Below, piece after piece: positions 1 through 15,292 of a stretch of 19,119 bases of DNA; positions within the stretch are counted from its first letter, which is position 1; each line of letters opens with the position of its first letter. Both the position numbers and the translations under genes were made by a program. Under the pieces are notes generated by a model. The model had not been told where the DNA came from. It did no database searches and saw nothing but the letters and a program-made list of their open reading frames with translations. This DNA is from a virus (Duplodnaviria > Heunggongvirae > Uroviricota > Caudoviricetes), in IMG/VR virus record IMGVR_UViG_2529292923_000023. The stretch is one strand, 5' to 3'.

Positions 1-1260
1 ATGCCAAAACTCACAGATATGCAGATCCGCGCATGGATAAAGGCGGGAGACAGATTTGATGGCAAGGCAGACGGCAACGGCCTTTATATTTGCTACCCCA
101 AAAACTACACAGCCCCGTTCTGGCGATTCCGCTATAAGCTCGCAGGAAAGCAGCGGGCTATGGTTATAGGCTCTTACTCCGAACTGTCACTATCAAAAGC
201 CAGAGAAACAGCAAAAGAGCTGTCAGCCAGAGTTGCTCTTGGCTATGACGTAGCAGCAGAGAAACAGGAACGAAAAGCTGAAGCACTGGCAAAAATGGAG
301 GCTGAGAAAAACGCCATGCGTGTTTCAGATCTGGCCTCCGAATACTTCGAGCGCCAGATACTTCCGAGATGGAAACATCCCGATATCCTTCGCCGGAGAA
401 TTGATAAGGATATTAACCCCTGCATTGGGCATATGAAGGTAGAGGACGTTAAGCCACGCCACATTGACGACATGTTGAAAGGTATCGTTGACCGAGGAGC
501 ACCAACGATAGCAACAGATGTATTACGCTGGACACGCCGTATCTTTGACTACGGGATAAAACGCCACGCTCTGGAGATAAACCCTTGTTCAGCGTTTGAA
601 GTATCTGATGCTGGTGGTAAAGAGGTTTCCCGCGACCGTTGGCTAACTCGCGATGAGCTTATCAGGCTATTCGAGGCTATGCGCACCGCAAAAGGATTCA
701 GCCGCCAGAACGAACTGACATTTAAGCTATTGCTGGCACTATGCGTTCGTAAGATGGAGTTATGCGCCGCACGATGGGAAGAGTTTGATTTAGATGGTGC
801 GGTATGGCATTTGCCGGAAGAACGCAGCAAAAACGGAGACCCTATTGATATACCTCTACCTTCCCCAGCCGTTGAATGGTTGAGAGAGCTACACACCTTT
901 TCATGTAATAGCGCATGGGTGCTTCCAGCCAGGAAGATGCAAAACAGAATGATCCCACATATTCAGGAAAGCACTTTGCCCGTAGCACTGGCTAAGGTTC
1001 GCGCCGAAATGCCGGATGTGCCTAATTTCACGATTCACGACTTCCGACGCACCGCACGTACTCATTTAGCAGCGTTGGGTGTTGATCCTGTCGTGGCGGA
1101 ACGATGCCTCAATCATCGCATTAAGGGCGTAGAGGGGATTTATAACCGCCATCAGTATTTTGATGAGCGTAAAGCAGCACTGGCACAGTGGGCTGATCTG
1201 CTGGTGGCACTGGAAAGCGGAAAAGACTACAACGTAACGCCTCTCAGAAGGGCGAACTAA
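1..1260 (+). CDS. int: Tyrosine recombinase/integrase, P4-type (window begins at its start codon; attL/tRNA target would lie upstream, outside the window)
   Basis: 419-aa ORF. N-terminal arm-binding region typical of P4-family integrases (LTDMQIRAW...GNGLYI...WRFRYKLAGK). C-terminal catalytic region with HDFRRTARTHL (His-x-x-Arg) and a Tyr near the C-terminus (GIYNRHQY). Followed by an AlpA/Vis gene as in P4-like elements. Confidence 0.9.
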   Translation: MPKLTDMQIRAWIKAGDRFDGKADGNGLYICYPKNYTAPFWRFRYKLAGKQRAMVIGSYSELSLSKARETAKELSARVALGYDVAAEKQERKAEALAKMEAEKNAMRVSDLASEYFERQILPRWKHPDILRRRIDKDINPCIGHMKVEDVKPRHIDDMLKGIVDRGAPTIATDVLRWTRRIFDYGIKRHALEINPCSAFEVSDAGGKEVSRDRWLTRDELIRLFEAMRTAKGFSRQNELTFKLLLALCVRKMELCAARWEEFDLDGAVWHLPEERSKNGDPIDIPLPSPAVEWLRELHTFSCNSAWVLPARKMQNRMIPHIQESTLPVALAKVRAEMPDVPNFTIHDFRRTARTHLAALGVDPVVAERCLNHRIKGVEGIYNRHQYFDERKAALAQWADLLVALESGKDYNVTPLRRAN

Positions 1261-3082: not shown

Positions 3083-3916
3083 ATGAACATCGAAAAAAGC
3101 AGATTAATTTCTGAGGCCGCCCCTCATCTGAACGCCTCTCTGGGCACAATTAACGGTAATGAATTTGCCGCAATTGTCCCGGTTATTCCTGGTCATATCG
3201 GTGGGCGTGAAACCAATATTGTTAGCGCAAAAGCGTTACACAAAGCGTTGGGCGTGGGAAAAGACTTCTCTACATGGATCACTGATCGCATCTCTGAATA
3301 TGACTTCACCATTGGGCACGATTACTCAGTCCATAAAACAATTTCCCCAAATTTGGGGAAAAGCCCGAATGGCGCGGCTTACAGCAAGATAAAGCACTCT
3401 GGCAGACCCGGCAAAGACTATCTGTTAAGTGTCGGAATGGCGAAAGAACTGGCAATGATCGAACGCAATGATCAGGGTCGCGCTATCCGCCGTTATTTCA
3501 TCCAGTGCGAGGAAGAATTACAGCGTACCGTGCCTGAAATCGCCGCCCGCTATCGTCGCCAGCTAAAAGCCCGTATTAGTGCCGCAAACAACTTTAAGCC
3601 AATGTGCGATGCGCTGAATATGGCCCGTGCCGAGATGGGGAAAATGACGCAGCAACACCACTACACAAACGAGAGCAATATGATTTCTCGTATCGTTCTT
3701 GGTGGGCTAACTGCTAAGCAGTGGGCGCGGATAAATGGCTATTCTGGCGAACCTCGCGACCATATGAACGCAGAACAGCTTGAGCACCTCTCATATCTCG
3801 AAAGCACCAATATCACGTTAATTGATATGGGCATGGAATATGAGCAGCGCAAAGGAGAACTCACCCGCCTGTCGCAACGCTGGCTCGCCAAGCGTCTGGA
3901 GGCGCTCAATGTCTAA
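3083..3916 (+). CDS. Phage antirepressor-like protein (AntA/AntB-type N-terminal domain with C-terminal KilA-C-like region)
   Basis: 277 aa; GGAGA Shine-Dalgarno; the segment NIVSAKALHKALGVGKDFSTWITDRISEYDFTIGHDY resembles the AntA antirepressor domain signature recalled from phage Ant proteins. Confidence 0.65.
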   Translation: MNIEKSRLISEAAPHLNASLGTINGNEFAAIVPVIPGHIGGRETNIVSAKALHKALGVGKDFSTWITDRISEYDFTIGHDYSVHKTISPNLGKSPNGAAYSKIKHSGRPGKDYLLSVGMAKELAMIERNDQGRAIRRYFIQCEEELQRTVPEIAARYRRQLKARISAANNFKPMCDALNMARAEMGKMTQQHHYTNESNMISRIVLGGLTAKQWARINGYSGEPRDHMNAEQLEHLSYLESTNITLIDMGMEYEQRKGELTRLSQRWLAKRLEALNV

Positions 3917-4088
3917 GCCAACAGGAACACCACAACCACAAAAACGCTACAAAGATGCCCACGGAGCACTCGTTACTGTCGAAAGCGTGTCTCACAACCG
4001 AGTGACGTTTTATCGCGACGGGTATCAATCGCCATGCGTACAACCGCTGGCGCGTTTCATGAAGGAGTTCGCGGAGGTTAACCAATGA
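3909..4088 (+). CDS. Small hypothetical protein (59 aa), possibly a DUF4222-like phage protein
   Basis: In-frame ATG at 3909 overlapping the upstream stop (ATGTCTAA); the ORF track's longer 3822 start lies inside the upstream gene. Motif VTVESVSHNRVTFYRDGY is reminiscent of small prophage DUF proteins. Confidence 0.5.
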   Translation: MSKPTGTPQPQKRYKDAHGALVTVESVSHNRVTFYRDGYQSPCVQPLARFMKEFAEVNQ

Positions 4089-5152
4089 TACCCGTCCAGA
4101 AGAAGACATTTTCACTGGCTGGTATGTCGCCAAAATCCAGCAATATGACGGCAAAGTCAGGCATTAATACAGCAGATACAAGCAAAGTTTATCATTTGCT
4201 GGTGGTCGGAACGGATGCCTTAACCATACCAGAAATCTCGGGCGATGATATTAGCATTGAGAAGGTCAGCGGCTGCGCCAGAAAATTTCTGGTCGTAGAT
4301 GATGTCTTCCGCTCGCGTAGTGACTCCACAAAAACCTTCATCCGCGCGCGTGACGTTAACGAAATGAGCGCGATGTACTGTGCATCTGGTGCTTCCAATA
4401 GCGAGTTTTCGGAGTCCATAAAAAAGAGCTTGCCGTTATGCGGCAACACGGTTTATGGTTATAAGGCACCTCATAAAACGGGTGCCGGGATTGGCGTCCT
4501 GGTAAATCGAATGGCGACATATGACGCGCCGAGCGTCTTTTTTTATGTCGTAGGTCTGACTCACCCATTTTTTGGGCGTTGGTGTATAATCCAGCGCCTT
4601 TGTCAATCAATGGTGGCTCAGGCAGGGGCTTCTTCGGAAGCGCCGGTATCCATTCGAGCCGGTTACGCCAACCCTGTCTGGGCTACCACCAGCGAAATTG
4701 GCGTTTCCGGTGGTAGCGTTACATGCTATCGAATGGAGGCTGCCACATGCTGGCTACTACCCCTACCCAAAAACCGCAATTTATCTGGATTATCGCCGCA
4801 GTTCGCCGCGATTGCCCGACAATTACCGCCAGAATTCATCATATTGCTGCCGAGTCTGAACGCGATGCTCGCCGTTCTCTGGTGCGCGATCACGTCTGCT
4901 TTTTTGCTGGTCGTATCCGCATGGAGGTGGCACATGATTAAAACCTACGATGTGCATATGGATCCCCTCGAACGCACAAGCCAGATCATCACACTGACAG
5001 AAGTGATTAACGACATTCTGGTGAGCAACTCTCCCTCACGAGACGAAAGACTGAAGGCGTTACTCGCGATATTGGATCTCGCCGTTCGTGACGTTCATTT
5101 CCTGCTGGAAGGTGGCGAAATGCCAGTAAAAACGGGGGCAACCAATGAATAA
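4085..5152 (+). CDS. Long stop-free ORF (355 aa), probably composite: a possible N-terminal coding part, an internal likely non-coding structured region, and a real small 3' gene (MIKTYD..., start 4934)
   Basis: ATGA overlap with the upstream stop supports the 4085 start. Between about 4560 and 4930 this frame uses rare codons (CTA CTA CCC CTA, TTA, CGA, AGG) and gives W/C-rich implausible peptide, while a different frame (4747-4941) has good codon usage and a GGAGG Shine-Dalgarno. The ATG at 4934 also has a GGAGG Shine-Dalgarno. True gene structure is uncertain. Confidence 0.3.
4747..4941 (+). CDS. Small hypothetical protein (64 aa)
   Basis: GGAGG 7 nt upstream of ATG; enterobacterial-like codon usage (CGC, CTG, GAT, GCC); stop overlaps the next small gene's start region. 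Confidence 0.35.
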   Translation: MLATTPTQKPQFIWIIAAVRRDCPTITARIHHIAAESERDARRSLVRDHVCFFAGRIRMEVAHD

Positions 5153-6764: not shown

Positions 6765-7128
6765 AAATGCAGAAATGGCGCTTAGCTCCGCAATCGGAGA
6801 GCAGGTGGCAAAGATTGCTGGTGCTGTGTGGATTCATAACCTTCATTCTACTGGTGAAGAGAAAATGGCAATTCAGACGCCAGAGGGACGCACTATTACT
6901 ACATCTCTGAAGCCGTCAGATGTTTGTGATCTGATTTGCGCATTCATGTACCCAGCAATGAGGACTGTCCACGGCGATAAGTGGAAACTTGCGACAACCG
7001 CTGAATTTGATATGTGGCTAAACAATGATGGCATGCTGACTGATTACGGAATAACCAAGTGGCAGATGCTGGTTAGCCATATCGCAAACGCTATAGACCA
7101 CGTGGGGTACGGTGATGCGAAACATTGA
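6757..7128 (+). CDS. Hypothetical protein (123 aa)
   Basis: GGGAGG Shine-Dalgarno; start overlaps the upstream stop; immediately precedes and overlaps the primase gene. Confidence 0.6.
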   Translation: MRENAEMALSSAIGEQVAKIAGAVWIHNLHSTGEEKMAIQTPEGRTITTSLKPSDVCDLICAFMYPAMRTVHGDKWKLATTAEFDMWLNNDGMLTDYGITKWQMLVSHIANAIDHVGYGDAKH

Positions 7129-9871
7129 TCTTATCCGTCAGGTTATCAGTGCGTCTGAAAACAACTGGCCTCATGTGCTGGGCTGCCTGAACATAAATGT
7201 CCCTGACTCTCCGCGCCGTCATGCTCCCTGCCCTGCATGTGGGGGCAAAGATCGATTCCGGTTCGATGACAACGGGCGCGGTAGCTTCATCTGTAATCAG
7301 TGCGGCGCTGGTGATGGGCTGGATTTAATTAAACGCGTAAATAACTGCGACACAACAGAGGCGGCGCTGCTTGCCGCTGATGTTCTGGGTATTGATTACC
7401 GGACAACGGAAACACCAGAAGCCACCAGCCAGAAACGGGAACAACTGGAAACCGAGCGCCAGCAACGCGAACAGGAGCGCCTGAAAAGGGCGGAGAAGGA
7501 CGAACAACAAAGACGGGATACGTTTTCCCGTCAGTTTGATGACATGCGCAGAAAGGCTGTAAACGGCAAATCTGATTATCTGGTTGCGAAAGGGGTAGGT
7601 GATTTTACATTCCCCGTGTTGCCCGATGGATCTCTGTTGCTGGCGCTGGTGGATAAATCCGGCGCAGTCACAGCAGCACAGACTATTACCTCACATGGTG
7701 AAAAAAGACTCCTGACAGGTTCAGCAAAGCGGGGGGCATATCACGCCATAAACGCACCAGAAACAACACAGAGCATCTTAATCGCAGAAGGGCTGGCAAC
7801 GGCATTATCTGCCCATTTAATTCGTCCAGAGGCGCTGACAGTGGCGGCGATTGATGCCGGGAACCTGTTATATGTCGCCCAGGTACTGCGGGATAAATTT
7901 CCTTCAGCACAAATCATCATTGCTGCGGATAACGACCACAGCGAAGGAAGACAAAACACGGGGAGAATAGCAGCAGAAAAAGCAGCTTTATCTGTTTCTG
8001 GATGGGTGGCATTACCCCCGACAGGTCACAAAGCAGACTGGAATGATTACCACCAAAAACACGGCATTAAATGCGCCACAGAAGCGTTCAATAAGTCAAT
8101 GTACCAACCACAGGGTAATGGCGTGAAACAGGAGCCACAGACCATTGAGGGAAGCGATTTTAAGGTTATGGATACCGACCCACTGAAACCAAGAATAGAA
8201 AGCCGCGAGGATGGTATTTATTGGGTATCTCCGAGAGCTGACAGCCAGAGTGGAGAAATCATCAATAACGAAAGCTGGTTATGTTCTCCGTTAAGCGTTA
8301 TCGGTACTGGCAGAGACGATAAAGACCAGTATCTCATTCTTCGCTGGCTGTCGTTTGGTTCTGAAACGCCGACAACCGCTGCCATTCCACTGGCTGATAT
8401 TGGTGAACGTGAAGGATGGCGCACACTTAAAGCTGGTGGGGTAAATGTCACGACCAAAAGCAGCCTCAGAGCAATACTGGCAGACTGGCTACAACGCAGT
8501 GGCTCTCGTGAATTGTGGCGTGTTGCTCATGCCACTGGCTGGCAATGCGGAGCGTACATCATGCCTGATGGGGAAATCATCGGAACACCTGAAAATCCTG
8601 TGCTGTTCAGCGGGAGAAGCTCAGCCGCAGCCGGATATACCGTCTCAGGGAGCGCGCAAAGCTGGCGTGATAACGTGGCGCGTCTGGCCTTTGGTAACTA
8701 TTCAATGATGACCGGGATCGGCGCAGCACTGGCAGCACCATTGATTGGGCTGGTGGGCGCTGACGGGTTCGGCATTCATTTCTATGAGCAGTCGAGCGCA
8801 GGTAAGACCACCACGGCAAACGTGGCGAGCAGCTTATACGGCAACCCTGATTTACTGCGGCTGACGTGGTACGGAACCGCGCTGGGGCTGGCAAATGAGG
8901 CCGCCGCCCACAATGACGGACTAATGCCGCTTGATGAAGTTGGTCAGGGCGCTGATCCTGTCAGCGTTTCACAGTCTGCCTATGCGTTATTTAACGGTGT
9001 AGGGAAACTGCAAGGCGCTAAAGATGGTGGAAACCGGGATCTAAAACGCTGGCGTACAGTGGCAATCAGCACCGGAGAAATGGATTTAGAAACATTTATC
9101 GCTACTTCCGGGCGAAAAACCAAAGCCGGGCAACTGGTGCGACTGCTGAATATTCCGTTGAGTAAAGCAGTACGCTTTCACGATTACCAGAACGGAAAAC
9201 AGCACGCAGACGCACTGAAAGACGCTTACCAGCATCACCATGGCGCAGCCGGGCGTGAGTGGATTAAATGGCTGGCAGACCACCAGCAACAGGCTATTAA
9301 AACTGTTCGTGATTGCGAAAGCAGATGGAGAAGCCTGATCCCACCCGATTATGGTGAGCAGGTTCACCGTGTAGCCGCGCGATTTGCCATTCTGGAGGCC
9401 GCATTGTTGTTAGGCGAGGTTGTAACAGGCTGGGATGCTCAGACATGCCGTGATGCGATACAGCACAGCTATAACGCATGGTTGCGCGAGTTCGGCACAG
9501 GTAACAAAGAGCATCAGCAGATTATTGAACAAACGGAGGCATTTCTTAATGCCTATGGGCTTAGCCGTTTTGCACCATTTCCATACAGCCCGGCAGATTT
9601 GCCCATCAAAGATTTAGCCGGATACCGTCAGCGTGGAGAACATGACGAAAGCCCAATGATTTTCTACACATTCCCGGCCACATTTGAAAAGGAGATCGCA
9701 TGTGGTTTCAACGCAAAACAGTTTGCTGAAGTGTTGAAAAAAGCCGGGATGCTAACCCCACCAAACAGCGGTCGTGGATACCAAAGAAAATCACCACGTA
9801 TTCAGGGACGACAAATAAACGTTTATGTACTCAATTACCAGCCAGGAGATTATAACTCATCTGAAGAATGA
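7115..9871 (+). CDS. P4 alpha-like primase-helicase (zinc-ribbon + Toprim + DUF927/D5-type P-loop NTPase)
   Basis: 918 aa from ATG 7115 (the ORF-track start at 7112 is a GTG). N-terminal CPACGG...CNQCG zinc-binding motif. Toprim-like acidic motifs (IAEGLATA; IIIAADNDH). Walker A (SSAGKTTTANV) and Walker B-like (LMPLDEVG) in the C-terminal half. An iteron-type origin lies directly downstream. Confidence 0.9.
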   Translation: MRNIDLIRQVISASENNWPHVLGCLNINVPDSPRRHAPCPACGGKDRFRFDDNGRGSFICNQCGAGDGLDLIKRVNNCDTTEAALLAADVLGIDYRTTETPEATSQKREQLETERQQREQERLKRAEKDEQQRRDTFSRQFDDMRRKAVNGKSDYLVAKGVGDFTFPVLPDGSLLLALVDKSGAVTAAQTITSHGEKRLLTGSAKRGAYHAINAPETTQSILIAEGLATALSAHLIRPEALTVAAIDAGNLLYVAQVLRDKFPSAQIIIAADNDHSEGRQNTGRIAAEKAALSVSGWVALPPTGHKADWNDYHQKHGIKCATEAFNKSMYQPQGNGVKQEPQTIEGSDFKVMDTDPLKPRIESREDGIYWVSPRADSQSGEIINNESWLCSPLSVIGTGRDDKDQYLILRWLSFGSETPTTAAIPLADIGEREGWRTLKAGGVNVTTKSSLRAILADWLQRSGSRELWRVAHATGWQCGAYIMPDGEIIGTPENPVLFSGRSSAAAGYTVSGSAQSWRDNVARLAFGNYSMMTGIGAALAAPLIGLVGADGFGIHFYEQSSAGKTTTANVASSLYGNPDLLRLTWYGTALGLANEAAAHNDGLMPLDEVGQGADPVSVSQSAYALFNGVGKLQGAKDGGNRDLKRWRTVAISTGEMDLETFIATSGRKTKAGQLVRLLNIPLSKAVRFHDYQNGKQHADALKDAYQHHHGAAGREWIKWLADHQQQAIKTVRDCESRWRSLIPPDYGEQVHRVAARFAILEAALLLGEVVTGWDAQTCRDAIQHSYNAWLREFGTGNKEHQQIIEQTEAFLNAYGLSRFAPFPYSPADLPIKDLAGYRQRGEHDESPMIFYTFPATFEKEIACGFNAKQFAEVLKKAGMLTPPNSGRGYQRKSPRIQGRQINVYVLNYQPGDYNSSEE

Positions 9872-10360: not shown

Positions 10361-10422
10361 GTGCTATTTGTTTCATATTTTGCAATTACGATGATGAATA
10401 TTGCGATTTGTGAAACCATAAT

Positions 10423-10442
10423 AACTGTTGTTTTATACAGTT
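10423..10442. promoter_or_regulatory. LexA-like SOS box (AACTGTTGTTTTATACAGTT) overlapping the putative promoter of the downstream cassette
   Basis: CTGT-N8-ACAG with AT-rich spacer and the same symmetric AACTGT/ACAGTT flanks as the dinD box at 18095-18114; sits 14 bp upstream of the 53-aa ORF start, just after the terminator. Confidence 0.4.
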
Positions 10443-10455
10443 CTAAGGGGGCGTT

Positions 10456-10633: not shown

Positions 10634-11095
10634 ATGGAACTAAAATTTATTGATAACCCTGTGCGATTACAGGCCTTTCTTAACGAGCCAGGCAATACCG
10701 AAAATATTGTTGAGCCGGGGCACACGTACTACATCAAGCCTGATGCGGTATATCTCGGCATCTACGAAGGATTAGTGCTGGCTGGCGTTCATGAAGTGCG
10801 TAACTTCTGGCATAGCGTTGTTGAATGCCATGCGGTGTACGACCCCGGATTCCGTGGTGAATATGCACTGCAAGGGCATCGATTATTCTGCAAATGGCTT
10901 CTCGAAAACTCACCATTCCTTAACAGCATCACCATGGTTCCTGACACCACCAAATACGGACGGGCAATTATCCGTTTGCTTGGCGCTACCCGTGTTGGTC
11001 ACCTTGATGATGCTTATATCAGATGTGGTAAACCCGTCGGCGTAACGCTTTATCAGTTAACTCGGCAACAATATAAGGAATTCAGCGAATGTTAA
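10634..11095 (+). CDS. Hypothetical protein (153 aa), Cys/His-containing, unknown function
   Basis: ORF 16 bp after the 53-aa gene; overlaps the next gene start (coupled); no recognisable motif. Confidence 0.6.
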   Translation: MELKFIDNPVRLQAFLNEPGNTENIVEPGHTYYIKPDAVYLGIYEGLVLAGVHEVRNFWHSVVECHAVYDPGFRGEYALQGHRLFCKWLLENSPFLNSITMVPDTTKYGRAIIRLLGATRVGHLDDAYIRCGKPVGVTLYQLTRQQYKEFSEC

Positions 11096-11766
11096 TTACC
11101 CATATAGCTCATAAACATCTCAATCGTGCCGTATACGAAAAAGGCGGTGATGGTGGTGCCTCTAAAGCTCAGGCGAAGGCCCAGCAGCAGGCAATTGATT
11201 TGCAGCGCGAGCAGTGGAATACGGTGATGAATAATCTCAAGCCGTATGCAGAAGTCGGATTGCCTGCTTTACAACAACTGCAAGGACTGATGACTCTGGA
11301 AGGGCAGAATAAAGCCGCGAATGATTTCTTTGGTTCTGGTTTATATAAAACACAGGCAGATCAGGCCCGTTATCAGAACCTTGTCTCAGCAGAAGCTACC
11401 GGGGGGCTTGGCTCAACAGCTACCAGTAACCAGTTATCTTCCATTGCGCCCATGCTTTATAACAATTGGCTCAGTGGGCAAATGCAAAATTATGGAAACC
11501 TGCTAAATGTCGGGATGAATGCGGCATCAGGGCAGGCAACGGCAGGGCAAAACTACGCCAATAATACCGGACAACTCTTGCAGGGGCTTGGCGCTATTCG
11601 TGCAGGTCAGGCGCAGCAGCCATCCAGTCTTGCGCGTGGTATTGGTGGGGCAGCATCAGGCGCTTTAGCGGGTGCGCAACTTGGTTCCGTTGTTCCTGGA
11701 ATAGGAACTGCGGCCGGCGCTATTGGTGGTGGGCTTATTGGTCTTGTTGGGGGGCTTGGATTCTAA
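11089..11766 (+). CDS. Hypothetical Gln/Ala/Gly-rich protein (225 aa) with glycine-zipper C-terminus; possible phage ejection/internal virion protein (P22 gp7-like by size and position)
   Basis: No cysteine; low-complexity Q/A/N/G composition; C-terminal GxxxG-rich hydrophobic tail (GAIGGGLIGLVGGLGF); translationally coupled to neighbours. Confidence 0.65.
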   Translation: MLITHIAHKHLNRAVYEKGGDGGASKAQAKAQQQAIDLQREQWNTVMNNLKPYAEVGLPALQQLQGLMTLEGQNKAANDFFGSGLYKTQADQARYQNLVSAEATGGLGSTATSNQLSSIAPMLYNNWLSGQMQNYGNLLNVGMNAASGQATAGQNYANNTGQLLQGLGAIRAGQAQQPSSLARGIGGAASGALAGAQLGSVVPGIGTAAGAIGGGLIGLVGGLGF

Positions 11767-13187
11767 TGGCGACATGGCAACTTGGCGGGCTGCCTAGCAT
11801 GGCACCGCAAAATGATAATGCTCCTCGTTCTTCCGTTCCTCAGCCTGTGCAGTATCAGCAGCAGCCAAACGTAGGTTTAATGGCGCTACAGGGGCTAAGA
11901 GGCGTTGCTGAGATTAATCAGCAGGCACGTCAACAACAGCGTAAATCAGAGTTTCAGAAAGCATATGCCGGGGCTTTTGAGTCTGGAGACAGAAACAAAA
12001 TGCGCAGTCTTATTTCTGAGTATCCAGAAGAATTTGAAAGCGTTCAGAAAGGGATGGGCTTTATTGATGACGACCAGAGAAATTCTATTGGTCATCTTGC
12101 GACTAGTGCTCAAATCGCATCTTCGCTCGGAACTGGGGCATTTGGAAAATTCATAGCAGATAACGAAGATGAAATGCGTCGCTTGGGAATTTCTCCTGAG
12201 TCTGTTGCCGAAATGCATGTTAATGATCCACAGGGATTCCAGCGGCTTGCTGGTAGTATGGCACTGTTTTCTCTCGGTCATGAGAAGTATTTCGATATCA
12301 AAGATCAAATGGAAGGTCGGGATATTGAGCGAGGCAGGCTGGCAGAGACAATCCGCAGCAATCAGGCTGGCGAAGCACTTCAGGCGAGAGGGCAGGATAT
12401 TAGCCGAGCAAATGCGTTAACGTCAGCATATGCACCAACAGCAGCAATGCAGAATTACAATCAGTACGCTCAAATGTTAAAGGCGGATCCAGAGGGGGCG
12501 GCGGCATTTGCGGCAGCGGCTGGAATTAATACAAACGCCAAAAAATTAATGAGTGTTAGAGAAAACGATGATGGCACTGTCACAAAATACTACACAGACG
12601 GAAGTGAAGAGCAGGGAAAACTAAACCAGCCAATATCTGGAGATGGGTTTCGTCCAATAGCTTTGCCAACAGCCCAAAAGATCATGGAAAAGTCGCCAGA
12701 AGGGGCTAAAAAAGCTGCTGGATTTGCATACAGGGTTAGGGATGCTCTTGATTCAATAGATACACTGAAAGACCAGCTTAGCCCACAGCGAGTGGCGATC
12801 ATTAATAATGCTTTGGGTAATGGGACGCTGGCTAACTTAACGCTCAGCCCAACAGAGCAGCAATACGTTGTTAATGCTAATGACGCAATAATGGCAATAC
12901 TCCGTCAGGAAACAGGGGCAGCTATCGTACCTGCTGAAATGTCAAAATATTATCAAATGTATTTCCCTCAGCCTGGCGACTCCACAAAAACCATTGATAC
13001 CAAGCGCCGGAAGATGGAAAACCAGTTCAATTCGCTGAAAGCTGCTTCTGGTCGAGCTTATGATGCTTTGCGGGTTATTTCAGCAGTTGACAGAGGAACG
13101 TCTTCTTCGTCGCAGACATTGCCGCAATCTGAGCAGGTATCACAGCCAGCAGCCAGCAGTAACTTTTCTTCACTATGGGGTGATTAA
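11766..13187 (+). CDS. Hypothetical Gln/Ala-rich protein (473 aa); possible phage ejection/internal virion protein (P22 gp20-like by size and position)
   Basis: TAATG start overlap; no cysteine in 473 residues; Q-rich N-terminus; long ORF with good codon usage. Confidence 0.7.
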   Translation: MATWQLGGLPSMAPQNDNAPRSSVPQPVQYQQQPNVGLMALQGLRGVAEINQQARQQQRKSEFQKAYAGAFESGDRNKMRSLISEYPEEFESVQKGMGFIDDDQRNSIGHLATSAQIASSLGTGAFGKFIADNEDEMRRLGISPESVAEMHVNDPQGFQRLAGSMALFSLGHEKYFDIKDQMEGRDIERGRLAETIRSNQAGEALQARGQDISRANALTSAYAPTAAMQNYNQYAQMLKADPEGAAAFAAAAGINTNAKKLMSVRENDDGTVTKYYTDGSEEQGKLNQPISGDGFRPIALPTAQKIMEKSPEGAKKAAGFAYRVRDALDSIDTLKDQLSPQRVAIINNALGNGTLANLTLSPTEQQYVVNANDAIMAILRQETGAAIVPAEMSKYYQMYFPQPGDSTKTIDTKRRKMENQFNSLKAASGRAYDALRVISAVDRGTSSSSQTLPQSEQVSQPAASSNFSSLWGD

Positions 13188-15292
13188 TGGCTAAAGCATG
13201 GAAAGATGTTATCGCCTCTCCACAGTATCAGGCGTTAGCACCAGAACAAAAAGCGCAGGCTCAGGAGCAATACTTCAATGAAGTCGTTGCCCCGCAAGCC
13301 GGAGAAAGTGTAGAGCAGGCTAAGCAGGCTTTTTATGCTGCCTATCCACTACCATCAACGAATGAAATAGACCGATCCCAATCAGCAACTCAAAATATTC
13401 AACATACATCATCTGATAATTCTCTTGCGTCAGGGTATGCAAAGTTAGCTACTCAGCAAAGAGAGGGGCTTGAGCGTTCAGCAGAACAGGGAGCCAGTCT
13501 TGGGGCTGCGATGCGCGATGCTATAACAGGCGAAAGCCGAATGACTTCAGAGATGGAGAGACTGCAAAATGTCGCCTCTGCCCCAGAATTGAACTCACTA
13601 AGCATGGATGCCCTAAAGGCTGGATGGTCCCAACTTTTCGGCTCTGACGCGTCTCAGGAAAAGATTCTTCAGGGAATGGGGGCGACATTAAGGCAGGATG
13701 AGAAGGGGAATACTATCGTTTCTCTGCCATCAGGTGATTATGCCCTGAACAAGCCGGGTTTATCACCGCAAGACCTGACTTCGTTTCTTGCTAATGCGTT
13801 GGCGTTTACACCAGCGGGCAGGGCTGGAACGGTGCTTGGTGCCATAGGAAAATCAGCAGCTACAGATTTAGCACTACAGGGAGCCACCAGCCTTGCTGGT
13901 GGAGAAGATATTGATCCGTTACAAACGGTAATTTCTGCTGGCATTGGTGGTATTGGTAAGGGGCTGGAAAATACAGCGAGTGCGGTTTCGAGGGCTGTTC
14001 GTGGTGATATGTCGCCTGAAGCAAAGGCTGCTGTCGACTTTGCATCGGAAAGAAATCTGCCGTTAATGACCAGTGACATGCTGAAAGATAAAACCTTTAT
14101 GCAGAGTCAGGCTCAGACATTAGGCGAAAGAGTTCCTTTTTTTGGAACCGGTAAGAATCGGCTGAATCAACAACAAGCACGAGAAAATTTAGTCAGAACA
14201 TTTAGCGATGGTCTGGGTGGCATTTCTGATAAACAGCTTTATGAATCTGCGACTAAAGGGCAACAAAAATTCATTGAGGCAGCAGGAAAGCGATATAACC
14301 GCATAATTGACGCTATGGGGGATACCCCTGTCGATCTCTCAAACACGGTAAAAGCTATCGACAATCAGATTGCCGTGTTAAGCCGCCCGGGCAAATCTCA
14401 GGATAGAGCCGCGGTAAAAGTCTTGCAGCAATTTAAAGACGATATCACCAGCGGACCAAATGACCTGCGCCTGGCGAGGGAAAACAGAACCGATCTTCGA
14501 AAGCGATTTATTGCGTCATCTGACACTGTTGATAAAGATACGCTCCAGAAAGCCAGCGATATTATCTACAAGGCATATACGGCGGATATGAAAAAAGCCG
14601 TAGCCAAAAATCTTGGAGCAGACGAAGCCATTAATATGGCAAGGGTTGATCGCTCATGGTCTAAATTCAATAACATGATGGGAAGAACGCGCGTTCAAAA
14701 GGCAATAGCCAGCGGCAAGGCCACGCCTGAGGATGTAACAAAACTCGTTTTTAGCCAAAGCCCATCAGAACGTTCTCAGCTTTACAGGCTTCTGGATGAC
14801 AATGGTAGGCAAAACGCACGAGCAGCCATAGTTCAGAATGCTGTAGATAAGGCGACTGATCCGTCTGGAAATATCAGTGTTGAGAAGTTTATTAATGCGT
14901 TACACCGGAACAGGAAGCAATCAGCAACTTTCTTTAAAGGCGTACATGGGAAGGAACTGGACGGCGTTATTAAATACCTCAACGATACAAGACACGCGGC
15001 AAAAGCGAACGTTCAAAACTTAAATGGTCAGCAGCTTTATGGATTGTTAGTTGGTGGTGGCATCATAAACGCAGCAGTATTAGCGGGGATGCTAAAAACG
15101 GCTGCGTTTGTTGTTCCTGCTGCTGGTGCCGTAGGCGGAGCAGCGAAGGCATACGAAACCCCTGTTATACGAAATGCCTTGTTACGTCTGGCAAATACGC
15201 CAAAAGGTAGCACAGCATATGACAGAGCGATCAGTACGGTCACACAATCGCTCACCAGAGTCGCACAGGCATCACAAAAAGAAGCTCAATAA
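13187..15292 (+). CDS. Hypothetical Gln/Ala-rich protein (701 aa) with hydrophobic Gly/Ala-rich C-terminal segment; possible phage ejection/internal virion protein (P22 gp16-like by size and position)
   Basis: TAATG start overlap; no cysteine in 701 residues; C-terminal LLVGGGIINAAVLAGMLKTAAFVVPAAGAVGGAAKAY membrane-like segment. Confidence 0.75.
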   Translation: MAKAWKDVIASPQYQALAPEQKAQAQEQYFNEVVAPQAGESVEQAKQAFYAAYPLPSTNEIDRSQSATQNIQHTSSDNSLASGYAKLATQQREGLERSAEQGASLGAAMRDAITGESRMTSEMERLQNVASAPELNSLSMDALKAGWSQLFGSDASQEKILQGMGATLRQDEKGNTIVSLPSGDYALNKPGLSPQDLTSFLANALAFTPAGRAGTVLGAIGKSAATDLALQGATSLAGGEDIDPLQTVISAGIGGIGKGLENTASAVSRAVRGDMSPEAKAAVDFASERNLPLMTSDMLKDKTFMQSQAQTLGERVPFFGTGKNRLNQQQARENLVRTFSDGLGGISDKQLYESATKGQQKFIEAAGKRYNRIIDAMGDTPVDLSNTVKAIDNQIAVLSRPGKSQDRAAVKVLQQFKDDITSGPNDLRLARENRTDLRKRFIASSDTVDKDTLQKASDIIYKAYTADMKKAVAKNLGADEAINMARVDRSWSKFNNMMGRTRVQKAIASGKATPEDVTKLVFSQSPSERSQLYRLLDDNGRQNARAAIVQNAVDKATDPSGNISVEKFINALHRNRKQSATFFKGVHGKELDGVIKYLNDTRHAAKANVQNLNGQQLYGLLVGGGIINAAVLAGMLKTAAFVVPAAGAVGGAAKAYETPVIRNALLRLANTPKGSTAYDRAISTVTQSLTRVAQASQKEAQ

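Follow-up and report, generated by a model that had tools for sequence, protein, structure and literature searches.

A predicted C4/CI-type antisense immunity RNA module nested in a 355-codon open reading frame upstream of a primase operon

Related immunity systems and the layout of the locus

In satellite phage P4, the immunity determinants PLE, seqA, t1, cI/seqB, seqC, and kil are nested in eta. The P4 terminators t1 and t4 were reportedly dealt with by Briani et al. in 2000. CI, seqA, and seqC of P4 are described in PMC4825925, in which IsrK appears as a structural homologue of SeqA. According to PMC10111431, CI is encoded within eta, and translation of Eta from an upstream late promoter prevents termination; the Rfam models C4 and isrK detect relatives of CI and seqA in PICIs (PMC10111431).

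The immI operon of phages P1 and P7 (c4, icd, ant) belongs to the same Rfam family, and the comparison with it was made via the shared Rfam model. According to the literature, the c4 precursor is a substrate of RNase P, and c4 RNA masks a ribosome-binding site: its a' and b' pair with a1/b1 and a2/b2, the downstream site lying over the ribosome-binding site of icd, as in the DNA studied here. Co-variation of these short sites shifts specificity and is the basis of P1/P7 heteroimmunity; the sites co-vary likewise in relatives of our locus. The operon controlled in P1/P7 is that of the antirepressor, whereas here it is that of replication, with antA lying upstream of the module and outside its control. 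The isrK–orf45 (STnc1160)–anrP region of Salmonella Gifsy-1 has a leader of the same type (Rfam isrK). Transcription there partly ends at the leader terminator and partly continues past it; the longer transcript is the source of a processed RNA of ~80 nt, which lies inside a translated ORF conserved in nucleotides and not in amino acids (PMC4825925). Activation of long-transcript translation by the short IsrK RNA has been demonstrated in Gifsy-1, and, unlike in our locus, an antirepressor gene lies downstream (PMC4825925).

We analyzed a 19,119-nt stretch of a Caudoviricetes record (IMGVR_UViG_2529292923_000023), hereafter the window. As judged from its sequence, the region upstream of the primase operon encodes an antisense immunity RNA of the phage P1 C4/satellite P4 CI family, with predicted target sites, promoter, and terminator nested in a long open frame. 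Similar sequence was found in 2,908 of 5,426 complete E. coli genomes, i.e., in about half. The features are as follows.

4085–5152, plus strand: 355-codon Eta/'Ash'-like ORF (ORF list; PF10554; alignment with P4 Eta)
4430–4459, plus strand: putative leader promoter, equivalent of P4 PLE; −35 TTGCCG at 4430–4435, 18-nt spacer, −10 TATGGT at 4454–4459, start near G4466
4466–4544, plus strand: leader RNA of isrK/P4 seqA type, with hairpin 1, hairpin 2, a1, and an intrinsic terminator
4491–4497, plus strand: target b1, UUGGCGU, in the loop of leader hairpin 2; complement of b'
4507–4514, plus strand: target a1, UCGAAUGG, single-stranded in the leader; complement of a'
4523–4537 (stem) and 4538–4544 (U-run, TTTTTTT), plus strand: predicted intrinsic (Rho-independent) leader terminator (terminator scan)
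4585–4590, plus strand: TATAAT hexamer
4606–4693, plus strand: predicted antisense immunity RNA of C4/P4 CI type (Rfam RF01695)
4611–4627/4672–4688, plus strand: closing stem of C4, 17 bp
4628–4641, plus strand: C4 helix 2, GCUUC-UUCG-GAAGC
4642–4646/4659–4663, plus strand: C4 helix 3, carrying the a' loop
4649–4657, plus strand: a' loop of the second C4 hairpin (helix 3), UCCAUUCGA
4665–4671, plus strand: b' junction of C4, ACGCCAA
4682–4717, plus strand: tail/antitail hairpin; the 3' arm of C4, GCUACCACC (4682–4690), pairs with GGUGGUAGC (4709–4717)
4698–4704, plus strand: target b2, UUGGCGU, at the tip of the tail/antitail hairpin; complement of b'
4729–4737, plus strand: target a2, UCGAAUGGA, overlapping the Shine-Dalgarno sequence GGAGG (4735–4739) of kil/icd
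4747–4941, plus strand: Kil/Icd-like gene, 64 codons (NF033153 match; homology to P4 Kil)
4753–4761, plus strand: third copy, GCTACTACC, equal to codons 3–5 (Ala-Thr-Thr) of kil/icd

The order of the parts was the same as in P4, including the Rfam matches to isrK and C4. The P4 record X02534 aligned with 4607–4768, i.e., C4 and the downstream target, at 71% nucleotide identity. In both elements, a long ORF runs over promoter, leader, and RNA gene, and the module lies upstream of an alpha-type primase operon. The specificity sequences differ: b' and a' are UUCUCAC and UCCUGUGAA in P4, vs. ACGCCAA and UCCAUUCGA in the window. The leader-to-C4 spacing is 115 nt in P4 and 160 nt in the window, and the long ORF has ~199 and 355 codons, respectively. 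The ATG of kil lies at +55 after C4 in P4 and at +54 in the window; being 1 nt closer, it places kil out of frame with the long ORF, which therefore continues into the next gene, so that the in-frame nesting of Kil in Eta is not reproduced here. The long ORF of P4 is coupled directly to an alpA homologue; in the window, the coupling partner is a DUF4222 gene that follows antA.

The C4-type RNA, its leader, and its target sites

The Rfam model RF01695 (C4) matched 4606–4693 on the plus strand with 79.5 bits (gathering threshold 45), over model positions 1–87 of 87. The 88-nt segment folded at −47.2 kcal/mol (z = −5.8 vs. shuffles), and its predicted minimum-energy fold was identical to the family structure, a long closing stem around two hairpins. 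Among 52 distinct sequences, 99.5% of the cells were paired and 18 of the 27 pairs had compensatory (double) changes; none of 500 shuffles was as good. As read from the letters, the 3' end has an acceptor-like stem followed by an ACCACCA tail. ARAGORN called no tRNA or tmRNA at C4, and this identity was dropped for the structure. An earlier note on this DNA had suggested a structured small RNA upstream of the primase, and the above-threshold C4 match together with the alignment to P4 CI bears this out for an RNA that is itself predicted. The note had named folding and covariance across homologous elements as checks, and both gave positive results for C4 and for the tail/antitail hairpin described below. 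The tetraloop hairpin GCTTC-TTCG-GAAGC that it had pointed out exists and co-varies; it is helix 2 of C4 and lies at 4628–4641, not at 4636–4649. By analogy with its homologues, the C4 of the window is predicted to yield a stable RNA of ~77–79 nt, released by RNase P, that would act in trans as the immunity factor.

Upstream, the leader matched RF01394 (isrK) at 4466–4543 on the plus strand with 67.1 bits (threshold 50). The c4-a1b1 model RF03163 overlapped it weakly (17.9 bits, below the threshold of 46.7); among relatives, the threshold was reached by locus L005 (48.5 bits), and locus L006 (44.6 bits) and P4 (44.1 bits) were just short of it. The leader alone folded no better than shuffles (z = −0.8). 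In every subfamily, promoter-like hexamers lay immediately before the isrK-like 5' end; examples are TTGATT-17-TACACT and, in P4, TTGCCT/TATAGT, and the P4 record carries a −10 annotation at the equivalent position. The hexamers of the window match the consensus at 8 of 12 positions and were not listed by a simple consensus scan; their positional conservation suggests that 4430–4459 is probably a constitutive promoter, the equivalent of P4 PLE.

The TATAAT hexamer noticed earlier at about 4585 is present at 4585–4590, and its occurrence is not beyond chance: it was found in 3 of 58 contexts. It probably does not serve as the RNA's promoter and was rejected in that role for this non-conservation. 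An independent C4 gene driven by TATAAT would account for a perfect −10 hexamer 16–21 nt 5' of C4, and in the P4 record, too, a −10-like hexamer is marked immediately 5' of the CI RNA. Such a gene is nevertheless unlikely, since the hexamer is without a usable −35 and absent from the promoter scan list, since a 38-nt deletion removes it in locus L004 and leaves the module intact, and since the gap between terminator and C4 is only ~24 nt in many relatives. In Salmonella, moreover, the isrK promoter is required for the CI-like RNA (PMC4825925). The putative leader promoter is the more probable source of the RNA.

In the complementarity search, a2 matched the C4 loop a' with perfect complementarity over 9 nt. 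The sequence TCGAATGG occurred only twice in the 19 kb, both times flanking C4, and two of the three TTGGCGT sites flanked C4 in the same order. Three close relatives with almost identical flanks showed three-way co-variation of a1/a'/a2 and b1/b'/b2. Across ~58 related contexts, the same sets co-varied in at least 15 specificities, counts that overstate the number of events because the related loci are not phylogenetically independent. For these comparisons, the b1 offsets in the leader were taken from the complementarity search, and anchors based on exact 7-mer repeats were inconsistent and discarded. In at least 50 related contexts, a2 lay at +35/36 after C4 and terminated in GGAG(G). In the window, it overlaps the GGAGG that sits 7 nt before the ATG (4747) of the Icd-like gene, so that a2 covers the putative Kil/Icd-like ribosome-binding site, and control by pairing is predicted. 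The logic of P4 seqA/seqB/seqC, in which a central sequence can pair with a site on either side, had been anticipated in the earlier note, and the complementarity and co-variation of the a and b sites agree with it. The triad named there (CTACCACC/GGTGGTAG/GCTACTACC) was the wrong one: the actual triad consists of a' and b' of C4, a1 and b1 of the leader, and a2 and b2 by the kil/icd ribosome-binding site.

The protein encoded at 4747–4941 matched NCBIfam NF033153 (phage_ICD_like) with 71.4 bits (cut-off 25) and was 46% identical to P4 Kil (E = 7e-11). Its gene had the best codon adaptation of the region (0.79). RefSeq annotates 4723–4941 as Icd-like. By homology, this gene would be the first one controlled by the RNA and the head of an operon running to the primase (7112–9871).

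The tail/antitail hairpin folded at −19.7 kcal/mol (z = −3.7) and has an inner helix of 3 bp (4694–4696/4705–4707) below b2. This hairpin and the lower base pairs of the C4 closing stem are mutually exclusive. In almost every locus it sat at the same place, +16 after C4, and its arms occurred in many compensatory combinations; among 37 distinct sequences, 97.7% of the cells were paired and 7 of the 12 pairs were compensatory, vs. 33–53% paired when the partner was slid. The stem of 8–9 bp described earlier at 4688–4695/4713–4720 corresponds to this element and does co-vary, its arms being GCTACCACC (4682–4690) and GGTGGTAGC (4709–4717). The third copy also exists, at 4753–4761 instead of 4751–4759, as codons of kil/icd. 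The positions of these two features and of the tetraloop hairpin had been off by 2–8 nt.

Pairing of the third copy with the antitail was 9/9 only in the lineage of the window and 5–6/9, the chance level, in most other loci; it was rejected as a target site because its pairing is unconserved outside this lineage. These data bear on a working switch made of the earlier triad, in which GGUGGUAGC (4709–4717) would pair either with the C4 tail (4682–4690) or with kil codons 3–5 (4753–4761), the second pairing looping out the ribosome-binding site and the AUG and thereby tuning kil translation. Even with both pairings complete at 9/9 in the window and the first helix conserved and co-varying, we regard this switch as highly improbable: most other loci, P4 included, fall to 5–6/9 for the second pairing, the third copy, being part of invariant coding sequence, gives no covariation signal, and the minimum-energy fold of 4694–4765 leaves the second pairing unused. 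The a/b pairing of the P4/P1 type is the reading retained.

The classical a/b model does not explain what the tail/antitail hairpin does. The hairpin co-varies, and it and the C4 closing stem compete for one strand; it may be an element of its own. It could correspond to the atypical CI-dependent terminator of P4, or it could switch between the mature immunity RNA and a target displaying b2. We tentatively put forward, as a possibility less likely than not, that the hairpin is a functional element outside the a/b model and that, in +54 lineages such as that of the window, the long ORF may be kept open across kil in a second frame. If the long ORF is indeed kept open there, with kil starting 1 nt earlier, the stretch would be genuinely double-coding.

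The 355-codon open reading frame

The long ORF starts at an ATGA overlap with the stop of the DUF4222 gene, 3' of a Shine-Dalgarno sequence GGAGG (4073–4077). It runs through promoter, leader, terminator, C4, a2/b2, and kil, and then in frame with a 72-codon gene (4934–5152). The ATG at 4747 is in a different frame from that of the ORF starting at 4085, so kil is not an in-frame C-terminal part of the long ORF. Residues 116–220 aligned with the P4 Eta ORF (E = 1e-18). Pfam Phage_ASH (PF10554) matched with 105 bits vs. 26 over aa 124–232, corresponding to nt 4454–4780. This match spans exactly the promoter, isrK leader, C4, and a2 stretch, and therefore the conservation of Phage_ASH is largely RNA conservation. 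In RefSeq, the stretch goes under the name 'ash family protein', in some cases marked as a pseudogene and in others joined to Icd; the RefSeq records examined carried no RNA feature annotation at this place.

The fixed frame was open over −120 to +45 in 57 of 65 related contexts; the two other sense frames were open in 3 and 9 of them, and the antisense frames in 7, 2, and 1. Over −200 to +100, it was open in 47 of the 65 contexts, vs. 0 for antisense. It persisted through variable loops, spacers, and phase-restoring indels, and in locus L004 the long ORF was kept despite deletions of 1 nt and 38 nt. The seven main classes of leader-to-C4 spacing (76, 103, 106, 115, 121, 151, and 160 nt) were all equal modulo 3. 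By this comparison of loci, the putative 355-codon frame is real and is held open across the module, as P4 Eta is over the CI RNA gene; the earlier remark that such an ORF would be hard to explain by chance thus proved sound.

At the protein level, the long ORF looks weakly constrained. In its N-terminal part, pN/pS was 0.4–0.7 with substitutions over all codon positions, and the N- and C-terminal parts differed completely between elements. Codon adaptation was 0.69 in the N-terminal part, 0.73 in the RNA module, and 0.61 in the stretch over kil, compared with 0.76 ± 0.03 for in-frame chunks of the large genes of the window and 0.69 ± 0.04 for off-frame chunks; the rare codons reported earlier for the stop-free stretch were therefore roughly right. 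It is extremely improbable that the region just encodes a working 355-aa 'Ash family' protein with incidental RNA-like stems. Such a protein would be in line with the good Shine-Dalgarno sequence and ATGA overlap, the full-length RefSeq CDSs in loci L003 and L004, the conserved frame, and the PF10554 match itself, but this match is confined to the RNA module, whose stems co-vary as RNA and whose loop and target sites change in concert, with free variation of the encoded amino acids. The off-frame-like codon use, the N-terminal substitution pattern, and the unlike termini point the same way.

The opposite explanation, that the RNA module alone is real, the long ORF being due to chance or an annotation artefact and Phage_ASH being translated RNA, is also improbable. 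The weak protein-level constraint, the poor codon use, and the pseudogene mark in one RefSeq genome are compatible with it, and within C4 the conservation of the RNA alone could account for one stop-free frame; however, the frame is open far past the conserved RNA and through its variable parts, with indels always restoring the phase. In addition, the ORF start shows coupling to the gene before it, and P4 Eta translation is reported as functional (PMC10111431). The conserved frame argues for translation of the long ORF, which by analogy with P4 would affect termination. The earlier note had set the RNA and the 355-aa ORF against each other as alternatives, a full-length protein counting as refutation of the RNA; there is evidence for both, as for eta and cI in P4, and that inference is therefore invalid.

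Proposed mode of action and its meaning

We consider it highly probable that the locus is a P4-like island immunity module controlling entry to the replication (primase) operon, its function being assigned by homology. The layout and base-pairing potential behind the third of the following steps were established in this analysis, while the other steps follow the homologues. First, transcription from the promoter just 5' of 4466 would produce the leader (4466–4544) with b1, a1, and the intrinsic terminator. Second, read-through transcripts would include the 88-nt C4/CI RNA (4606–4693), and a cut by RNase P at the 5' side with trimming at the 3' ACCACCA end would leave a stable RNA of ~78 nt. 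Third, the a' loop and b' junction would pair with b2/a2 just downstream and mask the Kil/Icd-like ribosome-binding site; with this site masked, the Kil/Icd-like gene and the translationally coupled genes through the primase are proposed to be kept silent. Fourth, a' and b' would also pair with b1/a1 in the leader, so that the stop at the leader terminator is favoured and the RNA limits its own synthesis. Fifth, the entire module would lie within the frame of 355 codons, whose translation would be coupled to that of the genes before it; after induction, transcription from an upstream promoter would bring ribosomes in this frame across the target sites, terminator, and C4, and the block would be overridden, as has been shown for P4 Eta.

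The RNA immunity system of P4/P1 type found here is of an already described kind, and it adds little new biology; the window carries another copy of the switch guarding the replication genes of a satellite-like island. The practical value lies in annotation, since the Pfam family behind the 'ash' label coincides with the promoter, leader, C4, and targets. The naturally occurring a/b variants, of which there are many, are a ready-made collection of orthogonal antisense pairs, and the locus illustrates clearly how one set of bases can serve both as regulatory RNA gene and as translated frame.

C4 antisense RNA and its complementary targets

The search of the window against Rfam gave three matches exceeding the curated thresholds (C4, isrK, and int-alpA RNA). 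The comparison with the CI RNA of satellite P4, proposed in the earlier note from the sequence alone, was borne out by the C4 match and by an alignment of P4 (record X02534) with window 4607–4768 at 71% identity. The P4 record carries the same Rfam pair, isrK and C4, in unchanged order, and its match to the window falls within the 'put. ash gene' of the 1980s annotation. The alignment and the shared Rfam matches argue for homology with P4 CI RNA, beyond analogy.

Features of the immunity module in the window
4085–5152, + strand: open reading frame of 355 codons
4466–4543, + strand: isrK leader (RF01394), 67.1 bits vs. threshold 50
4491–4497: b1, UUGGCGU
4507–4514: a1, UCGAAUGG, complement of a', in the isrK-like leader
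4606–4693, + strand: C4 antisense RNA (RF01695), 79.5 bits vs. threshold 45
4649–4657: a', UCCAUUCGA, loop of C4 hairpin 2, exact complement of a1 and a2
4665–4671: b', ACGCCAA, C4 junction, complement of b1 and b2
4698–4704: b2, UUGGCGU
4729–4737: a2, UCGAAUGGA, complement of a', downstream of C4
4747–4941, + strand: Kil/Icd-like gene of 64 codons, starting with ATG

Folded alone, the 88-nt C4 stretch gave the exact family structure (−47.2 kcal/mol, z = −5.8). Its second helix is the UUCG tetraloop hairpin of the earlier note (GCTTC-TTCG-GAAGC), located at 4628–4641 and not at 4636–4649; all strings listed there were present, some of them 2–8 nt from the positions assigned. Related loci were collected by a helix 3 pattern scan of IMG/VR followed by a search with a covariance model built from six C4 sequences, which found 69 C4 copies. 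The covariance analysis suggested earlier likewise supported the RNA: the structure held in 99.5% of cells, with compensatory changes in 18 of 27 pairs. Some viral contigs carried two or three tandem C4 modules, 360–660 nt apart and each with its own a/b specificity (L030, − strand, 9709–9796, 10365–10452 and 11021–11108; also L022, L023, L071, L009, and L063); in L063, both modules were traversed by one stop-free frame.

The seqA/seqB/seqC logic of P4 put forward in the earlier note holds, but the true triad consists of a'/b' against a1/b1 and a2/b2. The a-site 8-mer had no further occurrence in the 19 kb and the b-site 7-mer only one. The a2 site overlaps a GGAGG (4735–4739) situated 7 nt upstream of the ATG at 4747. 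The window and its close relatives L003 and L004 have almost identical flanks and a diverged centre, in which the a site and the b site have each changed in concert across their three copies, following the logic of P1/P7 heteroimmunity and of P4 seqA/seqB/seqC. Practically all 58 unique 88-nt contexts had b1 and a1 upstream, b2 at +5, and a2 at +35/36 ending in a Shine-Dalgarno sequence, with at least 15 different specificities.

Specificities of the window and two close relatives (b/b'; a/a')
Window: UUGGCGU/ACGCCAA; UCGAAUGG/UCCAUUCGA
L003: UUCGCAG/CUGCGAA; GUACAAGGA/UCCUUGUAC
L004: UUGGCCU/AGGCCAA; CAAUCAAGGA/UCCUUGAUUG

In the leader, b1 lies within the loop of the second hairpin and a1 within the single-stranded linker ahead of the terminator; the Rfam model 'a1, b1 targets of C4' gave a weak match overlapping the isrK match. 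A conserved −35/−10 pair ends 6 nt before the first base of the leader (TTGCCG-18-TATGGT in the window; TTGCCT/TATAGT in P4, whose record marks a −10 there; TTGATT-17-TACACT in another subfamily). Since the window hexamers are weak and the pair was not picked up by a simple promoter scan of the window, it is regarded as a candidate leader promoter. The TATAAT of the earlier note is present at 4585–4590 but is not a conserved signal: it occurred in 3 of 58 contexts, and a 38-nt deletion removes it in L004 with the module intact. In the predicted fold of the unprocessed transcript 4466–4765 (−133 kcal/mol, z = −6.2), a1/b1 of the leader pair in cis with a'/b' of C4, which recalls the inactive 'structure A' of Gifsy-1 isrK-orf45 RNA.

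Hairpin at the 3' end of C4

The segment GCTACCACC (4682–4690) is complementary to GGTGGTAGC (4709–4717), the 8–9 bp stem of the earlier note. The first strand, GCUACCACC, belongs to the C4 closing stem as its 3' side and pairs there with UGGUGGC... at 4611–4617; the second, GGUGGUAGC, is an additional downstream partner. In nearly every locus this tail/antitail hairpin sits at a constant offset (+16), and its two strands occur in many compensatory combinations. When 37 distinct sequences were aligned, pairing held in 97.7% of cells and 7 of 12 pairs showed double changes; with the partner slid, 33–53% of cells paired. The stem is thus real and conserved, but it is no seqA/seqC-type target, and it is mutually exclusive with the lower C4 closing stem. 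The inner 3-bp helix co-varies too, with b2 at the tip, resembling b1 in the leader hairpin loop. The third copy, GCTACTACC (4753–4761), corresponds to codons 3–5 of kil/icd and was rejected as a conserved partner: pairing with the antitail was 9/9 only in the window lineage and 5–6/9 in most others, including P4.

Compensatory tail/antitail pairs
P4: GCUAUCGCC/GGCGAUAGC
Related locus: UUCACCACC/GGUGGUGAA
Related locus: GUCACCACC/GGUGGUGAC
Related locus: GCCGCUCUC/GGGAGCGGU

The hairpin may serve for display of b2, for 3'-end formation or, because a U-rich stretch often comes after it, as a C4-dependent stop signal. Examples of this stretch (columns 53–60 of alignment A3) are AGUUUUUC and, in P4, GUUAUUUG (L002, about 1612–1619); the window version (4718–4725), GUUACAUG, is poor in U. 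Hairpin and U-rich stretch together may form a weak or factor-dependent terminator. For P4, Briani and co-workers reportedly described, in 2000, a terminator of atypical form, t4, located downstream of cI.

Open frame across the module and kil/icd

The 355-codon frame starts in an ATGA overlap with the DUF4222 stop, 7 nt after a GGAGG. The Pfam family Phage_ASH (PF10554) matched residues 124–232 (nt 4454–4780), a span coinciding exactly with candidate promoter, leader, C4, and b2/a2; the 'Ash' protein family is essentially a translated RNA module. Residues 116–220 align with the P4 long ORF ending in Kil. RefSeq treats this ORF as a pseudogene (locus L001), a full CDS (L003, L004), or a 183–185-aa 'Icd-like' fusion (L005, L006); the records of these five loci have no RNA feature at the module position.

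The earlier note held the frame hard to explain by chance, and the related loci agree. Across 65 unique contexts, the conserved sense frame (first base of C4 plus one) was open from −120 to +45 around C4 in 57, vs. 3 and 9 for the other sense frames and 7, 2, and 1 for the antisense frames; from −200 to +100, it was open in 47/65, vs. 0 antisense. The main leader-to-C4 distances (76, 103, 106, 115, 121, 151, and 160 nt) all leave the same remainder when divided by 3, and L004 preserves the frame across a 1-nt and a 38-nt deletion. These patterns are difficult to account for unless an open frame is under selection. RNA and ORF, earlier presented as either/or, are both supported. The product itself looks weakly constrained, since pN/pS in the N-terminal 115 codons was 0.4–0.7 with substitutions at all codon positions, codon use resembles off-frame sequence, and different elements have unrelated N- and C-terminal parts. 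An open but weakly constrained frame fits P4 Eta, within which CI is encoded; translation of Eta, which occurs from an upstream late promoter only and is coupled to the preceding gene, prevents termination (PMC10111431). It also fits Gifsy-1 orf45, conserved in nucleotide but not in amino-acid sequence.

The kil/icd gene matched the Icd-like model (71.4 bits vs. 25), its product is 46% identical to P4 Kil, and its codon adaptation is the best in the area. Its ATG lies at +54 after C4, one base closer than in P4 (+55), and therefore the long ORF crosses kil out of frame. In the window it stays open across kil and then joins the 72-codon gene in frame; other +54 loci (L003, L004, L036, L010/L064, and L014) are open through kil too. 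This suggests that 4747–4941 and its +54 counterparts may be double-coding; codon adaptation of the second frame was poor (0.61).

Gene neighbourhood and proposed regulation

The module is surrounded by a one-directional gene train. Small genes follow the long ORF; the kil/icd stop overlaps the start region of the 72-codon gene (ATG 4934, with another GGAGG upstream), from which the train runs on to the primase.

Other features of the window
1–1260: integrase
1269–1335, + strand: int-alpA RNA motif (RF02996), 60.6 bits vs. threshold 35.8
2436–2639: AlpA-type regulator
3083–3916: AntA-type protein
3909–4088: DUF4222 gene
7112–9871: P4 alpha-type primase, downstream of the small genes
11766–13187, + strand: match to the P22 injectosome translocase family (PF16928)

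The int-alpA motif directly adjoins the integrase stop, ahead of a 321-codon ORF, and is unrelated to the immunity module. Directly 3' of the primase (10634–15292, + strand) lie a DUF2824 gene, the translocase-family gene, and a 701-codon ORF, an unusual cargo beside a P4-like replication module. Several E. coli strains carry chromosomal islands 100% identical to the stretch, and of 5,426 complete genomes, 1,261 contained similar sequence according to megablast and 2,908 according to sensitive blastn.

The earlier observation is largely real and named the right system; its functional triad, promoter, and 'either/or' framing need correcting. Novelty is low because the system is already well described and detected by Rfam, and a 2023 paper noted that ORFs of this kind in phage-inducible chromosomal islands contain matches to C4 and isrK (PMC10111431). 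Three smaller features may be novel or so far insufficiently described: the tail/antitail hairpin with its co-variation, the indels that preserve phase, and the passage of the long ORF across kil out of frame.

The sequences themselves show the parts and their order, the terminator, a conserved open frame, and a base-pairing potential that co-varies. By comparison with P1/P7, P4, and Gifsy-1, a transcript would start at the leader promoter and be processed by RNase P to an RNA of about 78 nt. This RNA would repress kil/icd and the coupled replication genes by covering the ribosome-binding site and by causing premature termination, and would be autoregulated at the leader terminator, while translation of the long ORF on upstream transcripts would override the block.
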